Positions 41,422 through 58,076 are shown, counted from the stretch's first letter. The stretch is 64,000 bases of DNA from Candidatus Magasanikbacteria bacterium RIFCSPLOWO2_12_FULL_43_12 (GCA_001783065.1 MFQN01000003.1:15314-79313), one strand, 5' to 3'. The notes: generated by a model from the letters alone, not told the origin. Numbers and translations: made by a program.

Positions 41422-41479
41422 AATATTATTAACACATATACACTACAGAATTTAATCAAAAAAGTCAATACACACCTTA

Positions 41480-41550
41480 TGCGTCTTATTACACTCCCCC
41501 GTACACCACCACCCAGCTATTCAACACCTGAACGCGAGGAATGATAAAAA
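41480..41550. repeat. ~70-nt duplicated fragment of the 60694..64000 gene (homologous to 60871-60945), intergenic
   Basis: cttatgcgtcttattacactcccccgtacaccaccacccagctattcaacacctgaacgcgagg versus cttatacgtcttatcacactctcccgtacaccacccccaattatccaacacctgaacacgagg. Confidence 0.7.
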
Positions 41551-41672
41551 TAGTATACTAATACTCACTGATGATAATTTGAATAACATTCATATTTTCT
41601 TTTTCTAACAAAAAACCATCTCAATATTAAGACAGTTTTTTGTCTGAAAGAATTTTGTTTGCATAAAATCTT

Positions 41673-41987
41673 TCATTTTAATTTTATCCCCGTTCTTTTA
41701 ATTTCAAAAACCATCGGGTCAGAATCATTTTGAAAATCGCGAACACTAAAGACATGCGCCTCTAATCGCCTGTCAACTGCCATGCCTATTTTTGAATACA
41801 GCGCCAATTTCCTCCAAAAATTAATTTTGCTGTCATCAACAACAACAGCGACGTCTATGTCGCTCCACTTGCCCGCCCGCCCGGAAACACAAGAACCAAA
41901 CAAATAGGCCGCCTTGACTGTCAATCCGTTGTCTTCCAACATTTCCGCGTAATTTTTTACGATCTTTTTTACTTTAGCTTTTGACAT
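41673..41987 (-). CDS. nucleotidyltransferase (MNT-type antitoxin)
   Basis: ...AYLFGSCVSGRAGKWSDIDVAVVVDD... (G-S-x10-D-x-D); 104 aa; overlaps the HEPN partner. Confidence 0.8.
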   Translation of the reverse strand: MSKAKVKKIVKNYAEMLEDNGLTVKAAYLFGSCVSGRAGKWSDIDVAVVVDDSKINFWRKLALYSKIGMAVDRRLEAHVFSVRDFQNDSDPMVFEIKRTGIKLK

Positions 41988-42358
41988 AACATCTCATATA
42001 AGGCGACAATCCGTTTATAATACCCTTCCGTAAAATCTCTCGTGCATACTTGATAAAACTGCAACTTGAAATCGGGATAGCGCGTCGCGATATTAAAATT
42101 GTTCACCTCCTTTAGGAATAATATGTATTCCTCCGACAAATTTAATTTAGCCAAGTCATGCAAACGGACTAGGTCATGAATGCGCGGAGACTGTTTCTTC
42201 GTGATTTTCACGACCAGCGCTTTCAAAATCTTTTCTAAAACTATGTGTCCGAAAAATAAACAGTCTGAATAACGTTTCAACTTTTTTAAACCAAGCATCG
42301 TGTCAAAATCATGCTCAGCTGTCTTTTTCCAATACATGACAACTTCTTTGTAATCCAT
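41969..42358 (-). CDS. HEPN-domain protein (toxin partner)
   Basis: 129 aa all-helical with an Rx4-6H-type motif (...RIHDLVRLHD...); directly upstream of and overlapping the NTase gene. Confidence 0.7.
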   Translation of the reverse strand: MDYKEVVMYWKKTAEHDFDTMLGLKKLKRYSDCLFFGHIVLEKILKALVVKITKKQSPRIHDLVRLHDLAKLNLSEEYILFLKEVNNFNIATRYPDFKLQFYQVCTRDFTEGYYKRIVALYEMLCQKLK

Positions 42359-42565: not shown

Positions 42566-43090
42566 ATGGATTTTAGAAACTGTCACTTTATGCCAAAAAT
42601 CACTTTGAAAAAAATAAAACCCGCGGATAAAAACCATTTTGCCAAATGGTGGCGGGACAAAACACTGCTTAAACTGACGAGCGGCATTTTAAAACCAATA
42701 TCTGATAAAGAAATAACGAAATATTTTTTTGCTATATTACAAAACAAAAATGACTATCACTTCCTAATCCGCGCGGACAAAAAAGTCATCGGCCACGTCT
42801 CTTTAGTTAAAAGGAATGGCAATCGGTATGAAACTCAAATAATTATTGGCGAAAAAAAATATTGGAATAAAGGCTATGGCGCGAAAGCTATCAAAATCCT
42901 CATGAATAAAGCAAAACGATTGGGTATTCCAAAAATATTTCTTGAAGTCAGACCGACTAACCTGCGGGCTATCAAGGCCTATGAAAAATGCGGCTTTATT
43001 AAATCCGGCGTTAAAAAATATCCAAAAAATAAATTCATGCCGGAAATTTTGAAGATGGAATTTGAAAACACATTGCAAAAAACAAAATAG
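42566..43090 (+). CDS. GNAT-family N-acetyltransferase
   Basis: ...IGHVSLVKRNGNRYETQIIIGEKKYWNKGYGAKAIKILMNKAKRLG...FLEVRPTNLRAIKAYEKCGF... (acetyl-CoA-binding Q/R-x-x-G-x-G/A motif); 174 aa. Confidence 0.85.
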   Translation: MDFRNCHFMPKITLKKIKPADKNHFAKWWRDKTLLKLTSGILKPISDKEITKYFFAILQNKNDYHFLIRADKKVIGHVSLVKRNGNRYETQIIIGEKKYWNKGYGAKAIKILMNKAKRLGIPKIFLEVRPTNLRAIKAYEKCGFIKSGVKKYPKNKFMPEILKMEFENTLQKTK

Positions 43091-43099
43091 TCCTTCTCG

Positions 43100-43400
43100 C
43101 GGTGAACCAGCAATGTTTCAAATTGTGTTTTGCAACCGGCAAAATAAACTGGATCCACACTCATAAACCTCCCAATCTCACTATTGTAATACCTCTGTCC
43201 GGCATAATATAACCCGCTCGCATCAAGCTCATACCCGGTAAACTTCTTATCATTCTCGTAAGCTGTGTATTTATTATCCAACCGGACCGAACCAAACGGG
43301 TAGTAATCCAATACTTCAACCACAAAGCCGTTTTTGTCTGTTTCAACGCTTGAACCGGAGAGGTGGTCGATATGATGGTAGATTAGTTTACCCTATCCGC
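43100..43400 (-). pseudogene. truncated RHS C-terminal-core fragment (orphan remnant)
   Basis: ...VEVLDYYPFGSVRLDNKYTAYENDKKFTGYELDASGLYYAGQRYYNSEIGRFMSVDP is about 90% identical to 48800-49120. Homology ends where it runs into the GNAT gene; no toxin tip or start codon. Confidence 0.6.
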
Positions 43401-43444
43401 TAATGCCTGAGCATGACGATGGCGGGCAAACATCGTCAATTGTA

Positions 43445-44020
43445 TTAAAAACCACCCATCGAACCACTTGACAGTTTTTTCTTTTGTTTATTGAATTCAT
43501 CAAGATCAATAATTTCTTTTTCATAAAGCCAATTGAGTGATCTTAATTTTTCGTCTTGTTCAAATGAATCGCTAACATATTTATTTAAGAAAAAAGATCT
43601 TCTCTTCTCAAAAATTTCTTTAATAAAATTATCCAGTGTTTCTTTATCCGGTCTATTATTAAAGAAAACTAGATTTGCGCTATTCAATCCTTGAATTATT
43701 CTAAAGTCTTTTTTATTAAATAAAAAAATTGCTAAACTTATGATAGCCATACCAATCCAAAATAAAATTGCCCACTTGTCATCAGTTGAATAATAAATTT
43801 GGACAATACCTAATATAATTGAAACAATTAAAAAAACAAAAAAAACAACGAGCCAGCCTCCCTTTTTATTTGTAGAAATAATTTCTTTGTTTAAAATTTC
43901 TTCAAATGAAAGTGCGCATTCAAAATAATTCCACAAGTACCTATCAGAAACCTTCACGCCATTATCTAAAATTTCAAACTTTTTGAAATTTAGACCGTAT
44001 CTTTGATTTAAAGTATTCAT
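43445..44020 (-). CDS. hypothetical membrane protein (2 TM) with a SHOCT-like C-terminal tail
   Basis: 191 aa; WLVVFFVFLIVSIILGIVQIY and ILFWIGMAIISLAIFLF; C-terminus ...LNWLYEKEIIDLDEFNKQKKKL. Confidence 0.5.
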   Translation of the reverse strand: MNTLNQRYGLNFKKFEILDNGVKVSDRYLWNYFECALSFEEILNKEIISTNKKGGWLVVFFVFLIVSIILGIVQIYYSTDDKWAILFWIGMAIISLAIFLFNKKDFRIIQGLNSANLVFFNNRPDKETLDNFIKEIFEKRRSFFLNKYVSDSFEQDEKLRSLNWLYEKEIIDLDEFNKQKKKLSSGSMGGF

Positions 44021-44089
44021 AATAATTTAATTGGCTTTTTTATAATTTCAATTATCAATACCATTTTAAAAAAATCCGGCGGGGAAAAA

Positions 44090-44965
44090 TTACCAACAAA
44101 TTACCGCCTCCCCACCAATCTTTTCTTTTATAAAATTCTTTGCTTCTGTAAAACTACCAATTTCATCTATCAAACCGTTTTCTAATGCCATCTCGCCTGG
44201 CATCGAAGATCCATCAGCCAGCGACTTCACTTTTTCAACATCCAAATTACGACTTGTGGCGATGCTTTTCACAAGATCATCGTGAAGTATCTGTATATCA
44301 CGCATAATTAATTGTTTTTCCTCTTCTGTCAGTTGCTTGTTCGGATTAGCGGAATCTTTGTATTTTCCAGAACTTAGTATATTATACTTTACTCCGTCTT
44401 TTTCGTTCTTTTTTACATTATCGAGATACGACATGGTTACACCAATACTTCCTACATCCGAATTTTTTAATGCAAATATTGTGTCAGCCCCGGTTGCCAC
44501 ATAATATGCCGCTGACAGGCCTTGAGATCTAATCAATGTTATAATCGGTTTATCCAAATGTTTCATTGCTTCCACAATTTCTTCTGCAGCCGCAGTATAC
44601 CCGCCGAACGAATCTATTTCTAATAATACCGCCTTGATATTCTCATGCTTTTTTGCTTCATCCAAATTAAATATAATATTTTCTGAGGCGGTTGAATCTG
44701 AATAAAATTCTTTACTCTTGTCATCAATAGTATTTGGTATATATGTCACTAGATTACCGCGTAAAACAACACCAGCCACGTTACAATCTCCGGCATAACG
44801 CTCCGTACTCTGTACTGATGTGTTGAGTTTAGAAAAATCTATTTTTGTGTAAAAAAAATACGCCACACTAATTACAAAAATTATAAAACTCAATCCTATG
44901 CCTGCCGCCACAAACATAAAAATTCTTTTAATATCATTATTGTTCCCCTGCTTTATTTCTTCCAT
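44090..44965 (-). CDS. sppA: signal peptide peptidase SppA (S49 family, ClpP fold)
   Basis: ...KAVLLEIDSFGGYTAAAEEIVEAMKHL.KPIITLIRSQGLSAAYYVATGADTIFA...; N-terminal TM helix; 291 aa. Confidence 0.75.
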   Translation of the reverse strand: MEEIKQGNNNDIKRIFMFVAAGIGLSFIIFVISVAYFFYTKIDFSKLNTSVQSTERYAGDCNVAGVVLRGNLVTYIPNTIDDKSKEFYSDSTASENIIFNLDEAKKHENIKAVLLEIDSFGGYTAAAEEIVEAMKHLDKPIITLIRSQGLSAAYYVATGADTIFALKNSDVGSIGVTMSYLDNVKKNEKDGVKYNILSSGKYKDSANPNKQLTEEEKQLIMRDIQILHDDLVKSIATSRNLDVEKVKSLADGSSMPGEMALENGLIDEIGSFTEAKNFIKEKIGGEAVICW

Positions 44966-44966
44966 A

Positions 44967-45854
44967 TCATTGTGCGTTAGACTTTTTATTTAGTTTCTTA
45001 GTTTTAATCTCAGTGATTTTTCTTTGTACAGAATCCAATGGCCTTACCAAGTAAATAAGGAAAACAAACTTTAAAATTAACGGCCAAATCATAAGAGGCA
45101 TCCTAAATAATATTAGCGTAACCAGATTTTCTAAAATAAGAATAATCAATATGGCAATAGCAACTTCTAAAGCAAGTTTATTTTTCTTTTTAATTAATTG
45201 TCCTAATGCAAAAAAAATGAAAGCTAATATTATTATTATAATCAAATAAATCTTAGCAAGCAAACCTTCGGATATCTTATTTAAATAAACAATTACAGAA
45301 AAGACACTGGATACAGCCAAAATAAATGCTACATTCGAAGCGACATTCCATATTTTGTCGGAATCAGATAGCACACAATTTTTTGAATCAGCTTGTAAAT
45401 TTAAGTACGCCGACTGTCCAGACACACTATCATTAATATTTCTTTGTACCCGTATAAATGGAAACATTTTACCAACCCGAAAAGCGTAAACATACAAGAC
45501 AGTGAATAGTGGTATAATTAATAATAACCAAAACACATAACCAAAAATTACCGACCATTGAGGTAAATCAGCAGCGGCTACTTTTGGTTGAATTGCGACA
45601 AAAAAATACACCGTATTCCATACTATGGCTACAAAAAAGAAAAACTTCCAAAATATCTTCTCCAATATTTTTTTACTCCAACAAAAACCATACAAACCAA
45701 CTAATGCTGGAATTAATACCACTAAATCAATAAATTTCCAAATACTATCAAATCCTTTGGAATAATCCATGATTGATAGTATCATATAAACCCAAAACAG
45801 TATCTTCCAACCGATATTTTTTGGTTTAATTAGATTCTGTTGAACTTCGTCCAT
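44967..45854 (-). CDS. hypothetical polytopic membrane protein
   Basis: 295 aa, at least 7 hydrophobic helices; 2-nt gap to sppA. Confidence 0.55.
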   Translation of the reverse strand: MDEVQQNLIKPKNIGWKILFWVYMILSIMDYSKGFDSIWKFIDLVVLIPALVGLYGFCWSKKILEKIFWKFFFFVAIVWNTVYFFVAIQPKVAAADLPQWSVIFGYVFWLLLIIPLFTVLYVYAFRVGKMFPFIRVQRNINDSVSGQSAYLNLQADSKNCVLSDSDKIWNVASNVAFILAVSSVFSVIVYLNKISEGLLAKIYLIIIIILAFIFFALGQLIKKKNKLALEVAIAILIILILENLVTLILFRMPLMIWPLILKFVFLIYLVRPLDSVQRKITEIKTKKLNKKSNAQ

Positions 45855-45909
45855 ATTTAAATTAATTTAATTGGTCGTGTCCACATCCTTTCTCAGCGCC
45901 AAAATTGAA

Positions 45910-46275
45910 TTATTGTGAATTAAAATCCTGCTTGATTTTATTAAGCCATTCTCTACCATTTTGATTCAGTAATTTTTCACCAACTTCAAGACCTTTTTTA
46001 GAACCCACTAAAACTTCAAAAACACCAACTTGAGGCAAATTCTGAACGTTTGGATCTTCAGAATCCTGCATTTCGTTTATTAAATCAAAAGATTTTTTGA
46101 TTACCCTATCACCCTGAGACTCAGATTTAATTTTTCCTAACAGAAAGTCACCAAATTTGTCAAAAACTATTGTGGGTTCACTTAGCTCAAATTCATCAAA
46201 CTGGTGATAAGATTTAAGCTCTGGAACCCTATTTAGTAATTCTTGCACTGCATTGTCGTGGGTTATTTTTGTCAT
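45910..46275 (-). CDS. putative immunity protein for orphan RHS toxin cassette 3
   Basis: 121-aa acidic protein immediately downstream (2-nt gap) of the orphan C-terminal toxin ORF. Confidence 0.45.
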   Translation of the reverse strand: MTKITHDNAVQELLNRVPELKSYHQFDEFELSEPTIVFDKFGDFLLGKIKSESQGDRVIKKSFDLINEMQDSEDPNVQNLPQVGVFEVLVGSKKGLEVGEKLLNQNGREWLNKIKQDFNSQ

Positions 46276-46276
46276 A

Positions 46277-47360
46277 TTATTTTTTTACATCAGTCGCCGT
46301 TTTCACAGCATCTTTAAGATTGTTTAATAATGATTGTCCTATTTGTCTATCTTGAGTAGATAAATTATCCTGTCCAAGATACCTCGTTAATTCTGTAATT
46401 CTTCCAGTAGCCTTCTCTATGTGTCCAGACTTAGAGAGTAAATCGCCTGTTTGAGTTTCGTAACGCAATGCATCCGCTGTGCCACCGTCACCTATTTTAG
46501 ATCCTTTTCTATACAATTGTTGTACAATTTCTTTCAGCTTATGGTCAGATACATTGTCTAATAAAACTCCTCTAGTATTTTTACCAGCTTTCGTAATATC
46601 AAATGCATGATTTGCGGCCTTCCCTGCCGCCCCATACCCGCCACCAGGCAATACAACACCGAGCAACATACCGCCGGTCGCGATTCCTTTGTCGCTAAAC
46701 GTTGCATCTTTGTCTGCCAAAGTAGATACCGTATCATACACATCATAAGCTGACATACCAAATTCTGCAACAGCCCACGCGGCTATCAAGATAGGTATTA
46801 TTTCCCCATCCGGATCCGTATATTTCAACGGATTGTTATTCGCGTAAGCGTAACTATTCAAACTTTGAGGATCTGATAAATGAACTTTTAGACTTCTCTC
46901 ATACTTTTGTTCAAACCATGCCGCTCCGATGTCGAGGAAAGATGGATCCTCGCTCAAAAACTGCCCTCTCTAACCATCATAATACCTCGCATTAAGGTAA
47001 GACAGCTCGCTTTCTTCATCAAAATATTGTCCAATGAATTGTTTGCTTGTATTATCAGAACCAACGTCAATTCTCTTTTTTCCGTATGGATAATAGTCAA
47101 ATACATGCGTGGCAGAACCTTGATTGTCCGTGGTTATGTTTGTGCTGCCGAGGTGGTCGGTGTGGATATATTTTACACTGTTATTGTTTTCAATGGTAGC
47201 GACAAGGTTGTTTCCGGCGTAGATATATTTAGATGTTTTATTTCCCTCTTTTTCGTAGTGTTTAAATGGGTATATTGTAGTTGTGCCATTGGTGGTCTTT
47301 TTTGTTCTTTGTCCGGATTCGTCGTACGCGTATGTAACACTGTTGGTAACACATCATGAC
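46277..47360 (-). CDS. orphan RHS C-terminal cassette 3: ~400 nt of RHS-core homology (46958-47360, interrupted by an in-frame TAG) plus core end DPxG...NNNPLKYTDPDGE and a distinct C-terminal toxin domain (ORF 46277..46957)
   Basis: 46958-47360 is about 90% identical to 50340-50740 of the main rhs gene; the translated ORF begins MSEDPSFLDIGAAWFEQKYERSLKVHLSDPQSLNSYAYANNNPLKYTDPDGE, followed by a unique ~170-aa tip. Confidence 0.7.
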
Positions 47361-47367
47361 CTCGTTT

Positions 47368-47688
47368 TTAATGTTCCATCCCAATCCAATCAGTTAAAAT
47401 ACCATAAACTTCTGTAGCTAAATCTTTATATTTTTCAACAAAACCGGCAGTCTCCTCGTCAAATGTTTCGATGAAAACTTTGTGGACGTTTCTGATAAAT
47501 TCGTCAACATTAAAACTTAGATTAAACATTTCCACACTCTTTTTTATTTCGAGATCATATTCATCATGATTGTTTGCATCTGCGTAGTATATCCCAACAG
47601 GATTATACTTGTTAAACACTTTCCTCAACTTTTCAAGAATGACAGAACCTTCGGCCAACTCGATCAATCTACCTTTGTCAACCATCAT
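47368..47688 (-). CDS. hypothetical small acidic protein (possible orphan immunity protein)
   Basis: 106 aa; located between two toxin cassettes; no recognisable motif. Confidence 0.4.
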   Translation of the reverse strand: MMVDKGRLIELAEGSVILEKLRKVFNKYNPVGIYYADANNHDEYDLEIKKSVEMFNLSFNVDEFIRNVHKVFIETFDEETAGFVEKYKDLATEVYGILTDWIGMEH

Positions 47689-47819
47689 AAGCCGCCACCC
47701 CCCTTCTTTTTATTCCATTCTAATGCCATACATTAGATAGTTTAATTTTAAAAAACAACAGGACTATCCTTTTCTCTTGTAACAGCATCGGTTAAATCAT
47801 TCATTTTTAGGGGTTTAAT

Positions 47820-48152
47820 TTATGGTGACCCCTCAAATAATTTAATTAATTCTCGACACGCGATCTTAGCATTATTCATATAATAATCCTCGGTAGTTTT
47901 AATTTCTTTATCCTTTTCAGCAAGTGCATCGTGACTCCACTTCTTTCGCACATCACCAAACGGCAGATGATCTGTCTCTGATGCAACACCTACAAAAAAC
48001 AACAAACTTTTGTTATTTTCTAAATTATACCCAAACTGAAAACCATTCAATTTGCGAGCCCCCTCAATAATGCTAATCTTATTATCCAGAATATCATTTG
48101 CAATTTTGATAATTTTTTCTTTGTAATCCATATTATTTTTTAAAAAAATCAA
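47820..48152 (-). CDS. putative immunity protein for orphan RHS toxin cassette 2
   Basis: 110 aa; overlaps the 3' end of the toxin ORF by 20 nt. Confidence 0.45.
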   Translation of the reverse strand: MIFLKNNMDYKEKIIKIANDILDNKISIIEGARKLNGFQFGYNLENNKSLLFFVGVASETDHLPFGDVRKKWSHDALAEKDKEIKTTEDYYMNNAKIACRELIKLFEGSP

Positions 48153-49173
48153 TTAACACGCTTTTAACTTCCACTATTTTATTATTTGCAACATTCTTGT
48201 AATAATGCGGTTGATAACGGATACCAGTTGGACTCACAAAAATTTCTTTTGTTACATTTTTTACCCAATTTTTTGCTCCGCCACCATATTGTTCAGATAA
48301 TCTTTTTGCCGCTCGTAAAGTTCCTTCTGCCCCGGAAAAAATTGTTTTACTATTTTCAATAACTTCCTTTTTTAACAAACCAGCTTGAGTAAAGGCACTC
48401 CATAATACTGAACCACCTTCCTTAATCCCCTTATTCGCAACTGAACTTCTTCCACCCGTCCCCACATCAAGCGCCATAAAACCAATCGCCAATCCACGCG
48501 TACTGCCCTTTGTGTCCGGGTCAAACACATCCGCCGCGTTGTTTATCATACCACCAATGGTATGGTTCACAAACGCCGCCGAATGACCAACAATACCACC
48601 TTGTGCTTGTGCGTAATCCGCCGAAGCATTAAAGAAATCCCCGACTTTTCTTTGATCGGCGGCCATTTGTCTGCCGATATCGCCGTAAAATTGACCGTCG
48701 GGATCAGTATATCTCAGCGGATTATTCTTAACATACGCATACGAATTCAGGTTTTGCGGATCTGCCAAGAGTTGTGGTAATTTCATTTCCGTAATTTGTT
48801 CTGCTTCGCGTGTACCCATTACTATACTTAGCGGATCCACACTCATAAACCTCCCCACCTCACTATCATAATACCTCTGTCCGGCGTAATACAATCCGCT
48901 CGCGTCAAGCTCATACCCAGTGAACTTCTTATCGTTTTCGTAAGTCGTGTATTTATTATCCAACCGAACCGAGCCGAATGGGTAGTAATCCAATACTTCA
49001 ACCGCATACCCGTCTTTATTGGTTTCAACGCTTGAACCCGAGAGATGATCGGTGTGATGATAGATTATTTTTCCGTCGTCAATCGTGGCGATTGAGCTGT
49101 CTCCGGCAAAGATATGTTTCTTTGCTTTTCCTTGCCCTGAACCAGGCTGAATGGCGGCTTCAATAGTATACAA
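48133..49173 (-). CDS. orphan RHS C-terminal cassette 2 (core end + unique toxin domain)
   Basis: ...IIYHHTDHLSGSSVETNKDGYAVEVLDYYPFGSVRLD...YYAGQRYYDSEVGRFMSVDPL...DPQNLNSYAYVKNNPLRYTDPDGQ, followed by a ~190-aa unique tip. Confidence 0.7.
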   Translation of the reverse strand: MYTIEAAIQPGSGQGKAKKHIFAGDSSIATIDDGKIIYHHTDHLSGSSVETNKDGYAVEVLDYYPFGSVRLDNKYTTYENDKKFTGYELDASGLYYAGQRYYDSEVGRFMSVDPLSIVMGTREAEQITEMKLPQLLADPQNLNSYAYVKNNPLRYTDPDGQFYGDIGRQMAADQRKVGDFFNASADYAQAQGGIVGHSAAFVNHTIGGMINNAADVFDPDTKGSTRGLAIGFMALDVGTGGRSSVANKGIKEGGSVLWSAFTQAGLLKKEVIENSKTIFSGAEGTLRAAKRLSEQYGGGAKNWVKNVTKEIFVSPTGIRYQPHYYKNVANNKIVEVKSVLIDFFKK

Positions 49174-49247
49174 CCTGTTCGGGTAGATTGAAACTTTACC
49201 CTGCGCCCCTGTGGCGCCAGGGTTGGTGTTTTCGGTTTAAATTTTAA

Positions 49248-49601
49248 TTAACTCTTAATCTCATAAGAAAAATCTAATTCGTCATAGCGATTTTCTTTAT
49301 GTGTATTTTTTTCTATAATTTCTTCTAATATTTTTTTGTCTTTTGGATCAATATTATCAAGAGCCTTATAATTTTCGAGAACAAGATGAATGCCGGTTAT
49401 TTTGTCACGATCGGGGTCATCGATGAAGGTTTTAGATTCAGTGTCAAGACTCTGAAAACTATCATCAAACGAATCCCAATTTGCATTTGTTTTCTCGCTA
49501 TCTACTGGCGGATAAGCAAAATCAAATATCTTATTAAAACAATATAAAAGATCTGCTTTACTTTTGACATTAATTAAATTTACAGTATATTTTTTAATCA
49601 T
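49248..49601 (-). CDS. putative barstar-like immunity protein for the main RHS toxin
   Basis: 117 aa, very acidic (D/E-rich), immediately downstream (5-nt gap) of the rhs gene whose tip is barnase-like. Confidence 0.45.
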   Translation of the reverse strand: MIKKYTVNLINVKSKADLLYCFNKIFDFAYPPVDSEKTNANWDSFDDSFQSLDTESKTFIDDPDRDKITGIHLVLENYKALDNIDPKDKKILEEIIEKNTHKENRYDELDFSYEIKS

Positions 49602-49605
49602 AAAT

Positions 49606-52600
49606 TTAATTATTTTTATTAACTTTCAAAAAAGCTGGTCCTTTATTTTTTTGTTCGCCATAATGAGTGTTCGTATAATACATTTCCCCATTTTTTCCTG
49701 TGACGAGTCTTTCGGCCGTTCTGTTGCCTTGGTTTGGAGTTGTGTCCCATTTCTGGTAGTGCCCTTTTTCTTGTTGAGGCAAGTAACCTTCTTTATTTTC
49801 AAACAGCCCTCCTCCTTTATAATTTTGCATTGGACTCTTAAAACCATTCCCCTCCAAGTGTTCTATCACTCCTTGCACATGCGAAGGCAACGCGCCTCTC
49901 CCAATACTTGCCATTTCATTTGCCTTCCTCACCATCCCTCCCGCAACGAATGGAACACCAGCCGCCAATCCGCTGATAGTACGATCTGTCCATGAAAGAG
50001 GGTTGCCTGAGAAAGTGTCTTTTCCTGATATGGCCTCTTTTGCGTCTATGATATCTCCCAGCACGGGGGTTGAACGGATTGAACTTTCCATGGGGCGATT
50101 TGCAAAGGCATTTCCTATCATTCCAATAAGGGCTGATTGGGTGGCGATAAATGTTCCTGCGGCAATTATGGAAGGAGTTGTGTAGGCTATAATAGGTACA
50201 AGAAAGGCAAGCTCTCCGTTTTGGTCTTGATACATGATGGGATTATTCCTAGCGTACGCATAGCTATTAAACGATTGGGGGTCTATCAAATTCTGCCCAC
50301 TCCTCCAAAACACCGGATCTTGTGAAAGGAATTTTCCTCTCACCCCATCATAATATCTCGCGTTAAGGTAAGACAGCTCGCTTTCTTTGTCAAAATATTG
50401 TCCGATGAATTGTTTGTTTGTATTATCAGAACCAGCATCAATTCTCTTTTTTCCGTATGGATAATAGTCAGATACATGGGTGACAAAACCTTGGTTGTCA
50501 GTAGTTACGTTTGTGCTGTCCAGGTGGTCGGTGTGGATATATTTTACACTGTTATTGTTTTCAATGGTAGCGACAAGGTTGTTTCCGGCGTAAATGTATT
50601 TGGTTGTTTTCGTCCCGTCTTTTTCGTAATGTTTGAATGGGTATATTGTAGTTGTGTCATTGGCTGTTTTCTTGGTTCTCTGCCCGGTTTGGTCGTACGC
50701 ATACGTAACTTTGTTGGCGACAGTCGCGGTGGTTGTATTTGTCGACGACTGCGTGTAGGTGACGGTGAGATACGGATCTTGAGTGGTGCCTGTGTATTCT
50801 CCAGAAAAGATGGAAAAATAATTGTACCGTGTGGACGTTGCCGACGAACTGATGAACGCGGAATCAATGACATCATGTCCTTCGCGCAATCCGAGCTTGG
50901 TTGCGCCGGTCTTTGAAACCCAATTCCTACCATTGGCATTAAAATTGAAAGTAAGATACTTGCCAGTGATGATGTTAGTAAGGTCTTTGCGCTCGCTTAA
51001 ATCTATACCTTCAGTTGGATTGTCAATACTTCCGGCCTGATCAAAGTCGTCTATGGAAAGGGCTGCCGCGCTGGCTTGAGAGGCCTGAACTACTGTGATA
51101 AAATCATCGCCGTCATTGTCGTGATTGGTTATTGATTGTGGAAAGACGTTGAGCGAGGCGGAAGTGACTGTTGCGTTGTCGGGAATCTGGGATGTGTCAA
51201 AAGGCAAGAATGAACGATAGATAACATAGCTGGCGGTTGATTTGGCAGGTCCTGTCAGAAGGTAGGAAAATGTCGCGGAAGCGCCTGAACCAGACGTTGC
51301 GTCATGCGCCGTGTCCCAAGAGAAGCTGGATTTGAAGATGGATCCATCCACTGCGGTTGGATAAAAATTCATGGTTGTGGTCGTTGTGGCGGCAGTATTT
51401 ATGGTTGGGGAGGTCGCGGTCTCACCGGAAGACACCAGACGGTTCTGGTAATCCCATTCGTACGTCGTTATACCGTCGCTGACAAGGTTGCCGTTGTTGT
51501 CGTAGGCGAATGTCTTGTTGCCGACTTGAGTTACCGCGTGAGGATTGGTATATCCGGTTTGGGCGTACGCGTAATCCCCGACATCTGATTTGTTTAAGAT
51601 GTTTCCAATCGCGTCATAATTATATGTTTGCGTGTAATTTTGATTGTTTTTGGCGTTGGTTATGGTGGCGGATTTTAATCGGTACAAATCATCGTAAGTA
51701 TAGTTGCTCGTTTTGGCAGTGTCTAAATTTCCCGCGTCAATTATTTGGGTGATGTTGCCGACTGTGTCATAGGCGTAAAAAAGATCTTGCAACGTAACAA
51801 CCGCCGATTTTGAGTCGGATTTGGTTGTTTGCGTATAGGTGACGGTAAGATACGGATCTTGAACGGTGCCGGAGTATTCGCTCGTACGGATGGTCAAAAA
51901 ATTGTATTGTATGGTTGTTGAAGACGAACTCGTAAATGCCGAATCAATCACGTCATGACCTTCGCGCAGACCCAATCGCGTTGCGCCGATCGCGGAAATC
52001 CAACCCAGTCCGGTGGAATTAAGGTTGAAGGCGAGATATTTGCCAACCGCGATATTGGTGATGTCTTTGCGTTCGTTTGAATTAACGCCTTCGGTCGGGT
52101 TATTTATGGCCCCAGTTTGATCAAAATCTTCCTTGGCAAGTATCGTCGTACTCGCCTGGGACGTCTGCACAAGCGTGATAAAGTCATCTCCATCGTTGTC
52201 ATCATTTTTTTTCGCATAGACATACACGTTGAGCGAGGCGGATGTGATCGCGGCGTCGTCAGGAATGGAGGAAGTATCAAAAGGGAGAAAGGTACGATAG
52301 ATGTAATACAACTTTGAAGATTTGATGATTCCCGTAGTGGCTGCTAAAGCGGTATAGTTGCTGGCTATTCCCGCTGTCGCGTCATGCGCCGCGTCCCAAG
52401 AAGGGTTGGAGCTATAGATATACCCGTCTCCGGCTGTTGGATAAAACGTCTGGGTGGTTGTCGTGGTCGTCGCGCCAGATGATTCTTGCTTATACCCGGT
52501 CGTCACTTTATGCTTGAGACGGTGAAGTTGGTTTTCATCGTAGGTGTTTGTCGTGGCTGTGCCATTGCCATTTTCTTGATAAGCAATCTGTCCAAGCGGA

Positions 52601-55600
52601 GAATAATCAAAATCATTTACCACGCTCGCAAAATCTCCGCCAGTGCTTTCTTTTTGGGAAATATTTTCAAGCAGACCCGCGGAATTGTATTGATTTTTTA
52701 CTTCGCTATTATCCGGATAGATTGTTGACTTTACATTGCCGGCTCTATCATAGGTGTATTGAGTAACATAATCTATCGCGTCAATATCCTTTGTCTCCTT
52801 CGCTATTTGTCCCAAGGCATTATAGTCATAGCTCGTATTTGCGCCGCTGTTTTTCACGCCGCACAATCGGCCGATGCCGTTTGCACAGCCGGCATCATAA
52901 GTGTAGGTTACTTCAACTCCGGCCTGCGCCGCGGTGTCTTCGGTGATTTTTCGATTGAGTGAATCATAATTATACGCGACAATTTGATTTTTCGGATCGG
53001 TTTGGTTTTTTAAATTCCCGTTGTTATCATAAGTGTAATTCCAAATCCCAAACGTGAAATCGCCAGGGGCGTGCGAATCTTGGGCAGATAATCTCCTTCC
53101 CAAACCGTCGTAGCCGAAATTTCTTACATTTCCAAGAGCGTCGGTAATTTTCACCAGATTATCATTTCCATCATACCCGTAATACGTGTGATAATTTGCC
53201 AGCGCCGGATTAGTGATTTTTTCCGTTACCTGAATTAAACGTCCAAACGCGTCATTGTAATAGTCTTTGGTATTTCCTTTCGCGTCAATGGTGGAAACTT
53301 TCCAGTTGAAATAATTATTGGCAGTCGTCCCAACCGCGTTGGTGATAGTTTTCACTCGTTTGAGAGCGTCATAAGTATAGGTGGTGTATAAATTTGTGTT
53401 TATTGTCGGCGCGGTTTGCGCGGAGCCGACGGAAAAATATGCCAACGTCTCGGATTCAACCATGCCTAATTTATTATACGCGAAATCTTCCACGGAAAAA
53501 CCGTCTTCCACTTCAGTTCGTTCTTGAATTGTCTTGTCCAAACCGTTTATGTATGAAAAAGAATCAACGGCGTTGGCGTCGTCTAAATATTTTTTTGTCT
53601 GAACCGCGCGCGGATTGGTATTGTCCGTGTAAAAATATTCGGCTGACACGACCAAAGCTGTCGGATTGCTTGCATCCGGTATGCGCTCTTGCTTGACTCG
53701 GCCGAGCGGGTCAAAAGACGTTTCATACGCGTAATTATTCGCGTCTATTATCTGCTTAGGTTTGCCGACAGCATAATCGTATTGGTATTTAACCGTTTGT
53801 CCGAGCGAGTTGGCGATGGCCGCGGGATAAAGATTATTTGCATCATAAATCATCGTCGTCAAATTATTATTGCCGTCGTATGATTTCACCGCCAAACCGA
53901 AATTATTATATGTCTTTTGATTATCCGCGTATTGATTCCCGCTTATCCAATTTTTCTCTTTGGTTTTATTGCCGATACTCGCTTGCCCGAAAGGCAGATT
54001 ATCATAATACGAGATTGTTTCGCGAATTTTTACGCCGCTTGAATCAGTAACGATTTCTTGAGACAACAAGGCGATAATATTCGCGCCGTTTCCAGCGTAA
54101 GAATATGTATGAATTCTGGCGTCCGCGCCGACATCCGCGATCGCGCCGTTATTTGGCGCTGATACTTCGCCCCATTCTGTTTTCTTGGTTAAATTGCCGT
54201 TTGAATTATTATATGCAAAACTTTCCGCGCCGGCTTTTTCCGCGCCGGCGCTATCAAAACTTTTTTTGATAGTTTCCGAATTGAAAACAAAACTGCGATT
54301 ATTACCCAAATCCGCCAAACCAAATTTATTTAATGTTTTTGCTTGCAATTTTCCGCTACCATCCAATATATCCTCGCGGTACATCAGATTAATTTTTGCC
54401 GGATGGTCAACGTACTCACCCAAAGCGCTGTCGGTTTCATCGCCTTGATGAAAATACTGTTTGGTAACATTTCCCAGCGCGTCGGTTTTGGCTACCATCT
54501 GAAATCCGGCAAAACGTTTATCCAGATAATTGTTAAAATAATATTTCCCGCCTTCATATTGATAACTCGTCGTCGCTTTATTGCCCAAACCGTCATCGGT
54601 CGCAATCTTATCCGCCACATACACCATAAAAGGCAGTTTTGGATTGGCTTGCGAGCCGTCAGTCTTTTTGAACATCTGGGCGGTTTGGTATGTTACTTCG
54701 GTAATCGCGCCCTTGCTGTGGTCAACGCGAATGAGCAAATCAGCTTTCGCCCCCTTATTCAAATATACACCATTGCCGCCCTCGCCGCCAAGCCGCAGAA
54801 AATCGCTCAAACCATCTCCATTCACGTCTATTACGCGCCAGCCATTATCCAAATTGTTTCCTCCGCCAGAATCTTTAAGAAAAGATGTGGGGATAGTTTG
54901 AGTAGAATCATACGCCCAGCCGGCGCCATCGCCTTTGTTCATATACACAACCAAGGGGTCGGTGGCTTTTAATCCATTCCCGCGCGCGAAATCCACCAAA
55001 CCGTCGCCGTTAATATCCAAAAAACTGTTAGCGCCGTCGTATGTGCCTGGGATGCCGCCGCCTAAATATGGCGTGTCAAGCGAATAAGAACAATCATAAT
55101 TTTTTCCGCCATCAATATTTAAACAAGTACTTGCCTTCGGCAACACTTGGGTCCCGCTATCGCTAACAGTGACAAACCCGGAATAAACAAAATCTTCCAA
55201 CCCGTCGCCATTAACATCCATAATCACTGTTTCATAAGGGCTGTTCATTTGCGAACACATATAATAGCTCGGCGGAAGAGAATGCTCGCTGCTTGATTCC
55301 CACGCGCCATTTCCTTTATTGATAAAAATTCCTTGAATCCAAGGAGTATATTTTAATATGTCTGCCAAACCATCGCCGTTTATGTCTGCCAAACGCACGC
55401 AATTATCCAAAATACCATTGGTTGGCGATATGTTTATAAAAAGAGCCGGTGAATTATAATTTGCATCCATTACCCAGCTATCTTGTCCGATTTTCTTGAT
55501 AAATACTTTGGTTGGCTGGGCCACATTATCTTGTATTTTTCCATACACAAAATCCAGCATACCGTCGCCATTCACATCGCCAAGACGAACGCCATTATCG

Positions 55601-56778
55601 CCGCCGTTCATGTATATTGGCGTGGGCGACCCGCCGCCACTGATATATCCGCCATTGCCGTTATTTATAAAAGACTTGTTATTTATCATCTTTCCCGTGC
55701 TATCCGTGTCATCGCTGGAAAACAAATCAAGCAAACCATCACCGGTTACGTCGGCAATCCGTTGTCCTTTGTCTTGATACCCCACCCAAGACCCCCAATC
55801 CGGCGCGTAATAACCGTCAAATTTCCAACCCTTTTCTTTTTGTTGGTAGGTGAATGTCGTCGGCGGCAATGTGATGATATTCCCGTTCTTATTTCCGGAT
55901 TCAATTATGCCGCCAAGCAAGGATCGCTTATTATTATCACCGATCACGTAACTGAAATCATATTTCCTCACCCATTCTCCATTAGCCTTTACCGTAATAT
56001 TTGAAATTCTATATTGCGTGCGGATTTTAAAACCGGCATTATACATAACCGCGGTGTCCGCGCGCGCCTCGCGATTGAAAATCACTTCAAAAATGCCGTC
56101 TTCCGTGTTATGCCCGGTATAGACAATCCGCTCCGGATATATTTGTCCGCTGTCTTTAAAATATTCGTATTTAACAAAATTGTCATTAGTGTCGCGAATT
56201 TCCTGCAACAGCCATTTATACGCGTGGCTGGCGTTGTTCGCGTCGTCTTGACGCGCGGCCGCGTCATTGCCGAAAGTATAAACCGCGCCGGTTTTATCCG
56301 TAACCACCCATTTATTATTAATCAACGCGTAATTTAAAAAGTCGCCGGTTTCCACCTTGGCGCCGTATTGCCCGTTGGCGCCATCCGTCAAATTTATTGG
56401 AATGATTTCTCCGGACAAACTGGAATAAAAATAATTTTCCGTATAAAGTTTATCAACTCCTTTTTTGGGTAATCTTTGGATATACGGAATGGAAAAAGAC
56501 CAGCCATACCCAGCGATATTTGACTGGTCTTCGTCTTGGTTGTTATATTGCAGTTTCAAATCCGGCTGCAGCCCGTTTCTGCCGGGCGGAATAACGATAT
56601 CTTGATCAAAAATAAAAGCGCCCGATTGAGCGCCTGCGGTTATCTCCGGCAGTTCTGATTTTATTTCGGTGGAAGCGCGATAAACATACCCGCCATCAGC
56701 CGCTTGAACCATGTTTAAGGGCAAAAATACCAATAGCAAAAATAAAATAATCGGATACGATTTTTTATTCTTCCACAT
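49606..56778 (-). CDS. RHS/YD-repeat polymorphic toxin: signal peptide, FG-GAP-like repeats, YD repeats, two ~230-aa internal duplications, RHS core, C-terminal barnase/RNase-Sa-like ribonuclease domain
   Basis: 2390 aa. Signal peptide MWKNKKSYPIILFLLLVFLPLNMVQA. Repeats DVTGDGLLDLF/DVNGDGMLDFVY/DINGDGLADIL/DVNGDGLEDFVY. YD repeats (YTYDALKRVKTIT..., YGYDGNDNLVKITDALGNVRNFGYDGLGRRLS). Core end ...LNARYYDGVRGKFLSQDP...DPQSFNSYAYARNNPIMYQDQNGE. Tip ...GHYQKWDTTPNQGNRTAERLVTGKNGEMYYTNTHYGEQ resembles the barnase/RNase Sa active-site region. Confidence 0.85.
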   Translation of the reverse strand: MWKNKKSYPIILFLLLVFLPLNMVQAADGGYVYRASTEIKSELPEITAGAQSGAFIFDQDIVIPPGRNGLQPDLKLQYNNQDEDQSNIAGYGWSFSIPYIQRLPKKGVDKLYTENYFYSSLSGEIIPINLTDGANGQYGAKVETGDFLNYALINNKWVVTDKTGAVYTFGNDAAARQDDANNASHAYKWLLQEIRDTNDNFVKYEYFKDSGQIYPERIVYTGHNTEDGIFEVIFNREARADTAVMYNAGFKIRTQYRISNITVKANGEWVRKYDFSYVIGDNNKRSLLGGIIESGNKNGNIITLPPTTFTYQQKEKGWKFDGYYAPDWGSWVGYQDKGQRIADVTGDGLLDLFSSDDTDSTGKMINNKSFINNGNGGYISGGGSPTPIYMNGGDNGVRLGDVNGDGMLDFVYGKIQDNVAQPTKVFIKKIGQDSWVMDANYNSPALFINISPTNGILDNCVRLADINGDGLADILKYTPWIQGIFINKGNGAWESSSEHSLPPSYYMCSQMNSPYETVIMDVNGDGLEDFVYSGFVTVSDSGTQVLPKASTCLNIDGGKNYDCSYSLDTPYLGGGIPGTYDGANSFLDINGDGLVDFARGNGLKATDPLVVYMNKGDGAGWAYDSTQTIPTSFLKDSGGGNNLDNGWRVIDVNGDGLSDFLRLGGEGGNGVYLNKGAKADLLIRVDHSKGAITEVTYQTAQMFKKTDGSQANPKLPFMVYVADKIATDDGLGNKATTSYQYEGGKYYFNNYLDKRFAGFQMVAKTDALGNVTKQYFHQGDETDSALGEYVDHPAKINLMYREDILDGSGKLQAKTLNKFGLADLGNNRSFVFNSETIKKSFDSAGAEKAGAESFAYNNSNGNLTKKTEWGEVSAPNNGAIADVGADARIHTYSYAGNGANIIALLSQEIVTDSSGVKIRETISYYDNLPFGQASIGNKTKEKNWISGNQYADNQKTYNNFGLAVKSYDGNNNLTTMIYDANNLYPAAIANSLGQTVKYQYDYAVGKPKQIIDANNYAYETSFDPLGRVKQERIPDASNPTALVVSAEYFYTDNTNPRAVQTKKYLDDANAVDSFSYINGLDKTIQERTEVEDGFSVEDFAYNKLGMVESETLAYFSVGSAQTAPTINTNLYTTYTYDALKRVKTITNAVGTTANNYFNWKVSTIDAKGNTKDYYNDAFGRLIQVTEKITNPALANYHTYYGYDGNDNLVKITDALGNVRNFGYDGLGRRLSAQDSHAPGDFTFGIWNYTYDNNGNLKNQTDPKNQIVAYNYDSLNRKITEDTAAQAGVEVTYTYDAGCANGIGRLCGVKNSGANTSYDYNALGQIAKETKDIDAIDYVTQYTYDRAGNVKSTIYPDNSEVKNQYNSAGLLENISQKESTGGDFASVVNDFDYSPLGQIAYQENGNGTATTNTYDENQLHRLKHKVTTGYKQESSGATTTTTTQTFYPTAGDGYIYSSNPSWDAAHDATAGIASNYTALAATTGIIKSSKLYYIYRTFLPFDTSSIPDDAAITSASLNVYVYAKKNDDNDGDDFITLVQTSQASTTILAKEDFDQTGAINNPTEGVNSNERKDITNIAVGKYLAFNLNSTGLGWISAIGATRLGLREGHDVIDSAFTSSSSTTIQYNFLTIRTSEYSGTVQDPYLTVTYTQTTKSDSKSAVVTLQDLFYAYDTVGNITQIIDAGNLDTAKTSNYTYDDLYRLKSATITNAKNNQNYTQTYNYDAIGNILNKSDVGDYAYAQTGYTNPHAVTQVGNKTFAYDNNGNLVSDGITTYEWDYQNRLVSSGETATSPTINTAATTTTTMNFYPTAVDGSIFKSSFSWDTAHDATSGSGASATFSYLLTGPAKSTASYVIYRSFLPFDTSQIPDNATVTSASLNVFPQSITNHDNDGDDFITVVQASQASAAALSIDDFDQAGSIDNPTEGIDLSERKDLTNIITGKYLTFNFNANGRNWVSKTGATKLGLREGHDVIDSAFISSSATSTRYNYFSIFSGEYTGTTQDPYLTVTYTQSSTNTTTATVANKVTYAYDQTGQRTKKTANDTTTIYPFKHYEKDGTKTTKYIYAGNNLVATIENNNSVKYIHTDHLDSTNVTTDNQGFVTHVSDYYPYGKKRIDAGSDNTNKQFIGQYFDKESELSYLNARYYDGVRGKFLSQDPVFWRSGQNLIDPQSFNSYAYARNNPIMYQDQNGELAFLVPIIAYTTPSIIAAGTFIATQSALIGMIGNAFANRPMESSIRSTPVLGDIIDAKEAISGKDTFSGNPLSWTDRTISGLAAGVPFVAGGMVRKANEMASIGRGALPSHVQGVIEHLEGNGFKSPMQNYKGGGLFENKEGYLPQQEKGHYQKWDTTPNQGNRTAERLVTGKNGEMYYTNTHYGEQKNKGPAFLKVNKNN
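50750..52520. repeat. two ~690-nt tandem intragenic repeats in rhs (approx 50750-51440 and 51830-52520)
   Basis: Near-identical DNA (gacggtgagatacggatcttgagtggtgcc... versus gacggtaagatacggatcttgaacggtgcc...), encoding TMNFYPTAVDGSIF... and TTQTFYPTAGDGYIY... modules. Confidence 0.75.
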
Positions 56779-56946: not shown

Positions 56947-57276
56947 TCATTTTAATTTCACGCCTGTCTTTTTGATTTCATAAACCAAGGGATCCTCTTC
57001 GCTGGCAAAATCCTTGACGCTGAAAAAGTGTGGTTCTATCCCGCGTTCAACATCAACAATTCTGCGTTTTTTCCACAAAAATCCCCAATCGGCATTCCCG
57101 TTGTTTTTTTTTGAAATTATGCAAACATCAATATCGCTCCATGCTCGAGCGTGATTTTTCGCGTAAGAACCAAAGAGGTAAGCTTTCTCCACTTTTAAAC
57201 CCTTATCTTCCAAATGTCGCACAAAATCCTTGGCAAATTTTTTTACTTGTCTGACGGGGTATTTTTTTTTAACCAT
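56947..57276 (-). CDS. nucleotidyltransferase (MNT-type antitoxin), pair 2
   Basis: ...AYLFGSYAKNHARAWSDIDVCIIS...; 109 aa. Confidence 0.8.
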   Translation of the reverse strand: MVKKKYPVRQVKKFAKDFVRHLEDKGLKVEKAYLFGSYAKNHARAWSDIDVCIISKKNNGNADWGFLWKKRRIVDVERGIEPHFFSVKDFASEEDPLVYEIKKTGVKLK

Positions 57277-57641
57277 AGCATTATCTCGCGTGTTAAACGA
57301 AAATATTTTTGCGTAAATTTCTTGGTTGCTTTTTTGTAAAAAGAAAATTTAAAATCATCATACCGCGCGGCGATATTAAATGTATTAATTACGGCTAAAT
57401 GCTTGGCGTATTTACCGGGTAATTTTATATTTGAGAGAATGGCTAATCTTTCTAAATCATGAGTAATTGGAAAGATTTTTTCCCTGCTTTCTAAATATTT
57501 TCCTTTGAGTAAAAGTTCTAGAACCAAATGGGAGTAAAATAAACAATCAGAATATTTGCCGCTTCCAAACAAAGACTTTGCCGTCTCCCATTTCCTCGTT
57601 GAATTAGTGGCACAATAGTTTTTTAAAGATTCAATATTCAT
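57243..57641 (-). CDS. HEPN-domain protein, pair 2
   Basis: 132 aa helical; overlaps the NTase gene by 34 nt; similar to the 41969..42358 and 58058..58459 products. Confidence 0.7.
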   Translation of the reverse strand: MNIESLKNYCATNSTRKWETAKSLFGSGKYSDCLFYSHLVLELLLKGKYLESREKIFPITHDLERLAILSNIKLPGKYAKHLAVINTFNIAARYDDFKFSFYKKATKKFTQKYFRLTREIMLWLKKNTPSDK

Positions 57642-57680
57642 ACGGGGATATTATACCAAAAAGAAGTAAAAAGTCAATGC

Positions 57681-57760
57681 TGGGCAAGTCTTGCGTGATT
57701 GGTTGCCGAATTTGGGACCGACATCAACGCAATTAGGATATGTTGTTGGACACTCGGTAT
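57681..57760. repeat. short copy of the GGTTGCCGAATTTGGGACCGAC fragment of the 60694..64000 gene
   Basis: gattggttgccgaatttgggaccgacatcaacgc. Confidence 0.55.
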
Positions 57761-57764
57761 TGTT

Positions 57765-58076
57765 TTAAACAATTTTTATCCCACTCTTTCTTGCCTCGCA
57801 AGCCATCTGAGTGCCGCGGGTTTTAAAATCATTTTCATCAATCAGAGTCGGTTCGATTCTGGAATCGGCTCTTGCGGCGAGTTTCCATAGCAACATTTTT
57901 GCGTTTAAATAATCCTTTGTTTTCTTTGAAATAATTGCCACATCAATATCGCTGTTTTTGTCCGCCTTGCCAGACGCATAAGAGCCAAACAAATAAATAT
58001 TTGAAAACAAAAAACCACTATCTCTTAAAACTTGAGCATAATTCTTAATAATTTTTTTTACTTCATTAACAGACAT
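57765..58076 (-). CDS. nucleotidyltransferase (MNT-type antitoxin), pair 3
   Basis: ...IYLFGSYASGKADKNSDIDVAIIS...; 103 aa. Confidence 0.8.
   Translation of the reverse strand: MSVNEVKKIIKNYAQVLRDSGFLFSNIYLFGSYASGKADKNSDIDVAIISKKTKDYLNAKMLLWKLAARADSRIEPTLIDENDFKTRGTQMACEARKSGIKIV

Follow-up and report, generated by a model that had tools for sequence, protein, structure and literature searches.

A probable TcdB/TcaC-type RHS polymorphic toxin locus with a barnase-family tip in a Candidatus Magasanikbacteria genome

Results

Composition of the locus

We analyzed a stretch of 64,000 nucleotides (nt), hereafter the window, from Candidatus Magasanikbacteria bacterium RIFCSPLOWO2_12_FULL_43_12 (GCA_001783065.1, MFQN01000003.1:15314-79313), focusing on a locus that an earlier reading of the same DNA (the original prediction) had described as an RHS polymorphic toxin with a barnase-like tip, a putative barstar-like immunity gene and three orphan cassettes. 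The locus encodes a 2390-amino-acid (aa) RHS protein that ends in a ribonuclease (RNase) domain of the RNase Sa/barnase family, followed on the same strand by a barstar-like gene, two orphan toxin/immunity cassettes separated by a small acidic open reading frame (ORF), and a relic of an Rhs core (Table 1). The ORFs and homology blocks listed in the original prediction were all found at the positions it gave. Its assignment to a reduced-genome organism fits the source, a genome of the Candidate Phyla Radiation (CPR) obtained from a groundwater metagenome; CPR genomes are generally described as having about 1 Mb. Taken together, these features make an RHS polymorphic toxin locus of the TcdB/TcaC type the likely identity of this region, with a mechanism of the kind outlined in the Discussion.

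Table 1 Features of the RHS locus. Positions are counted from the first nucleotide of the window; scores are profile matches, with the cut-off of the profile in brackets where available.
Feature	Position	Strand	Size or residues	Evidence and remarks
Main RHS polymorphic toxin gene	49606-56778	-	2390 aa	7.2-kb ORF
Predicted Sec signal peptide	56701-56778	-	aa 1-26	MWKNKKSYPIILFLLLVFLPLNMVQA, followed by AD; read by eye
TcB-like N-terminal module (SpvB + FG-GAP/integrin-like beta-propeller)	54709-56625	-		Pfam
SpvB			aa 52-212	Pfam 53 bits, above cut-off
FG-GAP_3 repeats			aa ~340-690	Pfam 62 bits, above cut-off
RHS/YD repeats, shell region				PF05593 RHS_repeat 98.3 bits, above Pfam cut-off; TIGR01643 38.9 bits
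Tandem duplication units (DNRLRE-like domain + flanking YD repeats)	51625-52584, 50530-51507	-	~1 kb	
DNRLRE-like copy 1, inside RHS shell	51823-52446	-	aa 1445-1652	NF033679 32.5 bits, E 8e-8 (34)
DNRLRE-like copy 2	50743-51366	-	aa 1805-2012	NF033679 33.0 bits, E 6e-8 (34)
Rhs-associated core	50215-50466	-	aa 2105-2188	TIGR03696 61.9 bits (32.5)
Hydrophobic segment directly after core	50092-50211	-	aa 2190-2229	Sequence
PT-TG pre-toxin domain	49918-50076	-	aa 2235-2287	PF14449 27.3 bits (23.5)
RNase Sa/barnase-family toxin domain	49654-49914	-	aa 2289-2375	PF00545, RNase Sa2
Ribonuclease profile match			aa 2319-2374	PF00545 30.4 bits (24)
Barstar-like immunity gene	49248-49601	-	117 aa	Starts 4 nt past main stop codon
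Orphan cassette 2	48133-49173	-	~160 aa Rhs core + CT2 tip	Complete DPDGQ end; TIGR03696 66.1 bits
CT2 tip			185 aa (aa 162-346 of orphan 2 ORF)	
CT2 immunity candidate, DUF2489-like	47820-48152	-	110 aa (103 aa from ATG)	
Extra acidic ORF between orphans 2 and 3	47368-47688	-	106 aa	
Orphan cassette 3	46277-47345	-	~130 aa core, in-frame TAG, core end, CT3 tip	ORF 46277-46957
CT3 immunity candidate, DUF7674	45910-46275	-	121 aa	PF24722 42.2 bits (27)
Decayed Rhs core relic, without tip or immunity gene	43095-43400	-		TIGR03696 47.7 bits, profile positions 1-55 of 76 only

The main gene, present as a single ORF as had been claimed, carries matches to RHS_repeat and Rhs_assc_core, and its product reads, from the N-terminus, signal peptide, SpvB, FG-GAP propeller, RHS/YD shell, Rhs core, PT-TG and RNase tip. 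The predicted signal peptide has a basic n-region, a hydrophobic core and a VQA end. An FG-GAP N-terminus had also been proposed, and the Pfam match to FG-GAP_3, which lies beside SpvB, is accompanied by six D(V/I)(N/T)GDG(L/M) motifs between aa 343 and 651. TEN_YD-shell is among the precomputed matches of the protein, and comparison with Protein Data Bank (PDB) sequences matched the shell and core to the Rhs cocoons of type VI secretion systems (T6SS; 8qja, 8h8a, Tse15, 7q97, Tse5) and to TccC2 (6l7i).

The core of the main protein ends in ...NNPIMYQDQNGE, that is, in DQNG(E), a variant of PxxxxDPxG(L/E) in which both aspartates are kept and glutamine replaces proline. This end is the presumed autoproteolysis site. 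The canonical form, DPDG(E/Q), occurs only in the two orphans, so that of the canonical DPxGE core end claimed for the main protein the Rhs core itself was recovered, well above its profile cut-off, and the DPxGE motif was not. The hydrophobic segment that follows the core may serve in membrane translocation; orphan 3 carries an analogous segment.

The RNase tip and its general-base position

The last ~100 residues of the main protein align with residues 5-89 of the 97-residue RNase Sa2 (1py3; E 1.5e-9), and also with RNase Sa3, RNase Sa, binase and barnase. With the Pfam match above cut-off (Table 1), the barnase/RNase Sa-like tip of the original prediction was thus borne out. A word-indexed search for homologues of the 110-aa RNase domain returned no match, there being too few shared 5-mers; phmmer, run exhaustively over 1.8 billion representative proteins instead, gave 1313 tip homologues at E<=1e-3. 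Individual columns were then compared across the 170 domain hits in the best 150 of these 1313 proteins, with RNase Sa and barnase as references.

The equivalents of RNase Sa Glu41, Arg65, Arg69, His85 and Tyr86 are all kept in the window tip, corresponding to the base-recognition glutamate, the transition-state arginine pair, the general-acid histidine and the tyrosine. The general-base position (Glu54 in RNase Sa, Glu73 in barnase), by contrast, is occupied by Lys2343 (codon AAA, 49750-49752), a point the original prediction had missed. This column is glutamate in 153 of the 170 homologous domains, and lysine was found elsewhere among them only in P0103, P0105 and P0095. Among the nearest relatives of the tip, P0022, P0026, P0027 and P0029 have glutamate and P0025 has serine. 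Since the position is so widely glutamate, canonical catalysis by the window tip is doubtful; it appears to be a sequence homologue of the PF00545 family for which canonical enzyme activity cannot be assumed. The presence of Lys2343 in all 13 further contigs that carry the locus (see below) was considered as independent evidence and rejected, as these contigs represent one clone. Among the tip homologues, P0021, P0023, P0024 and P0032 carry barnase-like domains in tandem, two or three per protein; in several copies the catalytic glutamate and histidine have been lost, and these may be pseudo-enzyme repeats.

A barstar-like gene behind the tip

The 117-aa protein encoded directly after the main gene is acidic (isoelectric point 4.7; 25 acidic versus 17 basic residues) and scores 22.0 bits (E 1.6e-4) on the Pfam Barstar profile (PF01337), 1.4 bits below the cut-off of 23.4. 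Two homologues tie it more closely to this family. One, which adjoins a homologous RNase tip on an unrelated contig (L007), is 37% identical (E 1e-23) and scores 32.7 bits on Barstar, covering profile positions 3-93 of 96; the other lies downstream of P0025 (L022) and is 48% identical (E 5e-30). In a multiple alignment, D43 and D47 of the window protein fall on barstar D35 and D39, the DxxxD motif given as the signature of Imm-Barstar (PMC3482391). An hhalign comparison of the two-sequence immunity profile with barstar gave E 0.22, the profile being too shallow. With DxxxD kept and the L007 homologue above the Barstar cut-off, the claim that the adjacent acidic ORF is barstar-like is supported. 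Pairs of an RNase tip and a Barstar gene recur at six other loci, among them those on L007, L020, L021, L022 and the P0105 contig, and the lysine variants P0103 and P0105 as well as the serine variant P0025 each retain a downstream Barstar gene.

Orphan cassettes and the core relic

Throughout the locus, toxin and immunity genes are separated by gaps of 1-4 nt or overlap. Orphan cassette 2 was found as claimed, with a core, a tip and a partner gene that recurs elsewhere. Its CT2 tip had no Pfam hit (E<=10), no PDB hit and no full-length homologue in an index of 5.8 billion proteins. Distant relatives of its last ~70 residues were obtained by tblastn against plasmid records, in Photobacterium damselae pPHDD1 (E 4e-6), in Leptospira rhs arrays (E 5e-4) and in an orphan of a contact-dependent inhibition (CDI) locus of Paraburkholderia phymatum (E 2e-3). 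Ntox10 (PF15520) was considered as a family for CT2 and rejected: it was not among the Pfam hits at E<=10, and the link was a Leptospira protein hit weakly by tblastn (E 1e-2) at its C-terminus, downstream of where that protein matches Ntox10. A single-sequence AlphaFold2 (AF2) model of CT2 reached a predicted local distance difference test score (pLDDT) of 42 and was discarded.

The 110-aa partner of CT2 scores 18.8 bits on DUF2489 (PF10675), below the cut-off of 27. Photobacterium pPHDD1 and P. phymatum each have a homologue of it (E 8e-9 and 4e-10, respectively) as the next gene downstream of the CT2-like tip, and the one from P. phymatum scores 27.8 bits on DUF2489, over the cut-off. DUF2489 is thus probably an immunity family. 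The two pairs are located at 3692-4521 of the Photobacterium pPHDD1 record (L025) and at 3968-4562 of the Paraburkholderia phymatum record (L027). Their neighbours include other orphan toxin/immunity pairs, NucA/NucB with SMI1/KNR4, and CdiA with Imm8.

Orphan cassette 3 shares 90% identity with the main core over 46965-47264 versus 50336-50635, in an alignment that extends to ~400 nt, and is interrupted by an in-frame TAG at 46958-46960 that replaces the valine codon of the main gene's YYDGVRGKF; both the homology and the stop codon had been noted in the original prediction. Because of the TAG, orphan 3 is probably silenced or decaying at present. Its protein has been deposited as a hypothetical protein of Candidatus Magasanikbacteria bacterium RIFCSPLOWO2_01_FU... 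The CT3 tip falls into a conserved family without a name; its motif is LYR..IGDGGTADALRxExxTG..GHxxK, and a Pfam, NCBIfam or PDB family was found for none of its 11 members. An AF2 model of the tip is a small helical domain (pLDDT 70-93) that had no PDB fold match, and a search for phage matches to CT3 was likewise negative.

The partner of CT3 belongs to DUF7674. A DUF7674 gene directly follows CT3-type tips on L007 and L019, in a Proteus mirabilis rhs orphan array (L023) and in a polymorphic-toxin locus of Kitasatospora (L024), so that the pairing is seen at five independent loci from three phyla. Since it follows CT3-type tips in Gammaproteobacteria, Actinomycetota and CPR alike, DUF7674 looks like a dedicated immunity family, and we infer such a role for it here. 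The tip and DUF7674 gene together occupy 4857-5692 of L023, 3828-5635 of L024 and 3067-4465 of L019.

On the strength of these recurring partnerships we regard both orphans as real toxin/immunity pairs. The original prediction had named downstream small ORFs that are not conserved partners as an outcome that would count against it; as both orphan pairs are conserved partners elsewhere, this outcome did not occur. The profile searches it proposed for the tips and immunity candidates placed the RNase tip and DUF7674 above cut-off and the Barstar and DUF2489 candidates just below or below it, and assigned the CT2 and CT3 tips to no family.

The extra small ORF that had been listed between the orphans is present and acidic. 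It had no Pfam match and no match among plasmid records; its one homologue (39% identity, E 3e-10) comes from the unrelated array L007, in which it is the next gene after the barstar-like one. The ORF is possibly a stray immunity or accessory gene, and may once have belonged to the RNase cassette, with orphan 2 inserted later.

A third, decayed orphan cassette had been placed at 43100-43400. What lies there is a core-only relic, so that two of the three claimed cassettes stand as toxin/immunity pairs. The relic (43151-43392) is 86% identical to the core of orphan 2 (48833-49074), which completes, with the 90% of orphan 3 versus the main core, the identity check proposed for the homology blocks. 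Homology ends after '...GRFMSVDP', and from there the ORF continues into a convergent GNAT acetyltransferase gene, which it enters at the 3' end. The relic and orphan 3 are separated by one gene for a signal-peptide peptidase (S49) and two for membrane proteins.

An old internal duplication of a lectin-type domain

The original prediction had noted an internal duplication of 690 nt (50750-52520). The duplication was confirmed and its size was not: the unit is ~1 kb, within which the conserved domain spans ~208 aa (~624 nt). This domain, in both copies, is DNRLRE-like and matches its profile slightly below cut-off (Table 1); both copies also match TGFb_propeptide weakly. That the duplication is a pair of DNRLRE-like, lectin-type domains had been missed. 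Aligned as proteins, the two units (aa 1399-1718 versus 1758-2083) have 165 of 331 aligned columns in common, and the trace at the DNA level is a single 92-nt block with 73% identity at a spacing of 1080 nt. The comparison indicates that the duplication is real but old. An 85%-identical main gene was found in another Magasanikbacteria genome bin (metagenome-assembled genome L004), and it aligns across both units, so the duplication predates the split from the L004 lineage. A further relative (L020) carries a lectin-type Laminin_G_3 insert in its RHS shell, and lectin-type inserts (DNRLRE, Laminin_G_3) therefore seem to recur in the RHS shells of this class.

Other copies of the locus

The identical locus is present on contigs of GCA_001784235.1 and GCA_001782965.1, in Rifle-type groundwater metagenomes and in Joint Genome Institute (JGI) metagenome 3300025311. 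The 13 other contigs that carry it all match the window at 99.87% identity or more; they represent a single clonal population and lend no independent support. Tip-swapped variants, which the original prediction had suggested might be found in related strains, were absent from these clonal contigs: no recombinant was seen among the contigs in hand, and both core copies stand at the same 3371-nt spacing in all of them. An exact 68-nt core pattern had no match in the metagenome_contigs collection, which evidently does not include this sample, given that the JGI contig L001 carries the pattern.

Discussion

Proposed mechanism

In the reading that we favor, which builds on the domain composition, homologies, repeats and recurrent pairings shown above, the 2390-aa protein would be exported by Sec, as its predicted signal peptide suggests. 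SpvB, the six-motif propeller and the YD shell would form a closed cocoon like that of a fused TcB-TcC, to judge from their homology to solved Rhs/TcC structures, and the two DNRLRE-like jelly-roll domains would project outward from the shell, where they are probably surface- or glycan-binding. The aspartyl autoprotease of the Rhs core would cut after ...DQNGE and thereby free, inside the cocoon, a C-terminal piece made up of the hydrophobic segment, PT-TG and the RNase domain. On contact with a neighboring cell this piece would be released and enter the cell, in which the RNase may degrade RNA. The producer and its kin would be protected by the translationally coupled barstar-like protein, whose acidic DxxxD helix is expected to block the active site of the RNase in the way that barstar blocks that of barnase.

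The orphan cassettes (CT2/DUF2489-like and CT3/DUF7674) would be promoterless spare tips, whose immunity genes could still guard against neighbors that use those toxins. The ~400 nt of 90% core homology in orphan 3 would be a suitable substrate for tip replacement by recombination; orphan 3 cannot, in all likelihood, be swapped in productively without repair of its TAG, a consequence that the original prediction had overlooked.

Several observations weigh against this mechanism. The replacement of the general-base glutamate by Lys2343 is the main caveat. The main core ends in DQNG rather than in DPxG, and the contigs, being of one clone, give no sign of tip swapping. The in-frame stop in orphan 3 and the core relic 2.5 kb further on suggest that part of the locus is decaying. 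Finally, neither a TcA-like partner nor other delivery machinery was recognizable by Pfam among the large neighboring ORFs in the window.

Alternative interpretations

We tentatively put forward, as plausible rather than probable, a further reading, in which the lysine-for-glutamate tip is still active and belongs to a recurrent sub-class (the window protein, P0103, P0105 and P0095, with serine in P0025) that cuts RNA through a non-canonical mechanism or with an altered specificity and still needs a barstar; CT3/DUF7674 and CT2/DUF2489 would, in addition, be two uncharacterized toxin/immunity families common to RHS, CDI and other systems across phyla. The opposite interpretation of the same residue is that the locus is a decaying relic, whose main tip is dead or strongly attenuated by the change from glutamate to lysine (GAA to AAA), whose orphan 3 is a pseudogene, and which has ceased to intoxicate, with only the immunity genes still of use. 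The strong preference for glutamate in the homologous domains, including P0022, P0026, P0027 and P0029 among the nearest, fits this interpretation, as do the single transition that separates AAA from GAA, the TAG in orphan 3 and the truncated core relic. Substitutions of barnase Glu73 or RNase Sa Glu54 are moreover known to cut activity by orders of magnitude. Against it stand the intact 7.2-kb ORF, the retention of all other active-site residues and the barstar-like gene, which is itself intact and translationally coupled. The Barstar genes kept downstream of P0103, P0105 (lysine) and P0025 (serine) suggest, in addition, that such variants are still dangerous to their producers, and even a very small residual activity makes an RNase of the barnase type toxic. 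Because the variants keep their Barstar genes and the rest of the active site and of the main ORF is intact, we rate a dead tip as unlikely.

A different target is conceivable for a functional toxin. Cultivated CPR bacteria live attached to host bacteria, and the toxin could be aimed at the bacterial host of a presumed epibiotic organism, for attack or resource extraction, with the DNRLRE-like inserts as host-surface receptors. The CPR origin of the window and the recurrence of lectin-type inserts in the class (DNRLRE here, Laminin_G_3 in L020) would agree with such a role. We nevertheless hold it to be improbable: an immunity gene together with an orphan array is a hallmark of competition among kin and neighbors (PMC3482391), no host or target can be identified from the window, and an RNase with barstar immunity fits either target equally. 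That the protein instead serves as BC subunit in an ABC Tc toxin complex of the insecticidal type, aimed at eukaryotic cells, is highly improbable, for although its SpvB, FG-GAP, RHS and core layout is that of TcB-TcC and it matches TccC2 (6l7i) in sequence, no TcA-family Pfam domain occurs in the large neighboring ORFs of the window, and the bacterial-type RNase tip, the adjacent barstar gene and the orphan cassettes are features of interbacterial polymorphic toxins.

Relation to known systems

As an RHS polymorphic toxin locus, the favored reading is of a kind already known. The TcdB/TcaC export class (signal peptide, SpvB, integrin-like propeller, RHS) and Tox-Barnase with Imm-Barstar were catalogued in 2012 by Zhang et al. 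(PMC3482391), and an RHS/YD toxin with an immunity gene has been mentioned for a CPR (Saccharibacteria) genome (PMC6031116). The closest parallel in layout is the metagenomic protein P0031 (2261 aa, on L020), which has a signal peptide, SpvB, an integrin-like propeller, an RHS shell with a lectin-type insert, a core, a barnase-family tip and a downstream Barstar gene; the window protein differs in having a duplicated DNRLRE-like insert where P0031 has Laminin_G_3. Compared with TcdB/TcaC-type relatives in general, the window protein is distinguished by its DQNGE core, by lysine in place of the catalytic glutamate and by its CPR host.

The tip and its inhibitor resemble barnase/barstar and RNase Sa (PF00545/PF01337) in sequence family, in the histidine, the two arginines, the tyrosine and the base-recognition glutamate, and in the DxxxD inhibitor encoded immediately downstream. 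Unlike barnase and RNase Sa, which are secreted as free enzymes, the window RNase forms the tip of a 2390-aa carrier and has lysine at the general-base position, and its putative inhibitor remains 1.4 bits under the Pfam threshold. With the TcB-TcC cocoon of Photorhabdus and Yersinia the window protein has in common SpvB, the propeller and, as predicted, an RHS cocoon with an aspartyl autoprotease, which would enclose a C-terminal toxin. It differs from TcB-TcC in that B and C are fused, in that no TcA was found near the locus, and in its antibacterial-type toxin, which is paired with an immunity gene. Bacillus subtilis WapA and enterobacterial Rhs proteins are likewise Sec- or surface-exposed RHS carriers with an RNase-type tip, immunity, and downstream orphan tips with core homology. 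WapA is without the SpvB and FG-GAP module of the window protein, and enterobacterial Rhs proteins use the T6SS (PAAR/VgrG), unlike the window locus.

On this reading, ~11 kb of a CPR genome would be given over to an interbacterial toxin system that is complete and includes spare tips, an investment that is ecologically relevant and has a precedent in CPR. The new elements are modest, namely the probable immunity roles of DUF7674 and DUF2489 with two unnamed tips, and a natural lysine variant of the barnase-family general base that is directly testable. The recurrence of lectin-type inserts (DNRLRE, Laminin_G_3) in RHS shells is a usable by-product.

Genomic neighborhood

The flanks of the RHS locus (40986-42358 and 56947-59416) contain five type II toxin-antitoxin-like pairs, three of HEPN/MNT, one of HepT/MNT and one of HicA/HicB. 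In view of these pairs, the whole stretch looks like a conflict island. Further out lie two giant ORFs on the minus strand (36243-40826 and 60694-63945) that had no Pfam hit; one encodes 1527 aa, and the other is cysteine-rich and reaches up to 2898 aa on longer contigs. The stretch at 37-39 kb has an extreme AT skew (-0.28 to -0.38). A gene for a VirB4/TraG-type P-loop ATPase (TraG P-loop domain, 99.8 bits) is located at 28098-30002 on the minus strand, 20 kb from the RHS locus, and could be part of a type IV-like secretion or pilus apparatus. A GC-rich patch at 60.1-60.6 kb was considered as a structured RNA; it matched no Rfam family and is better explained by a 136-aa ORF on the plus strand (60160-60570) with a lipoprotein-type signal (…LLASC…), which is called as a gene on other contigs. 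With ~55-60% GC in a neighborhood of 37-45%, this ORF is possibly a recent foreign acquisition.

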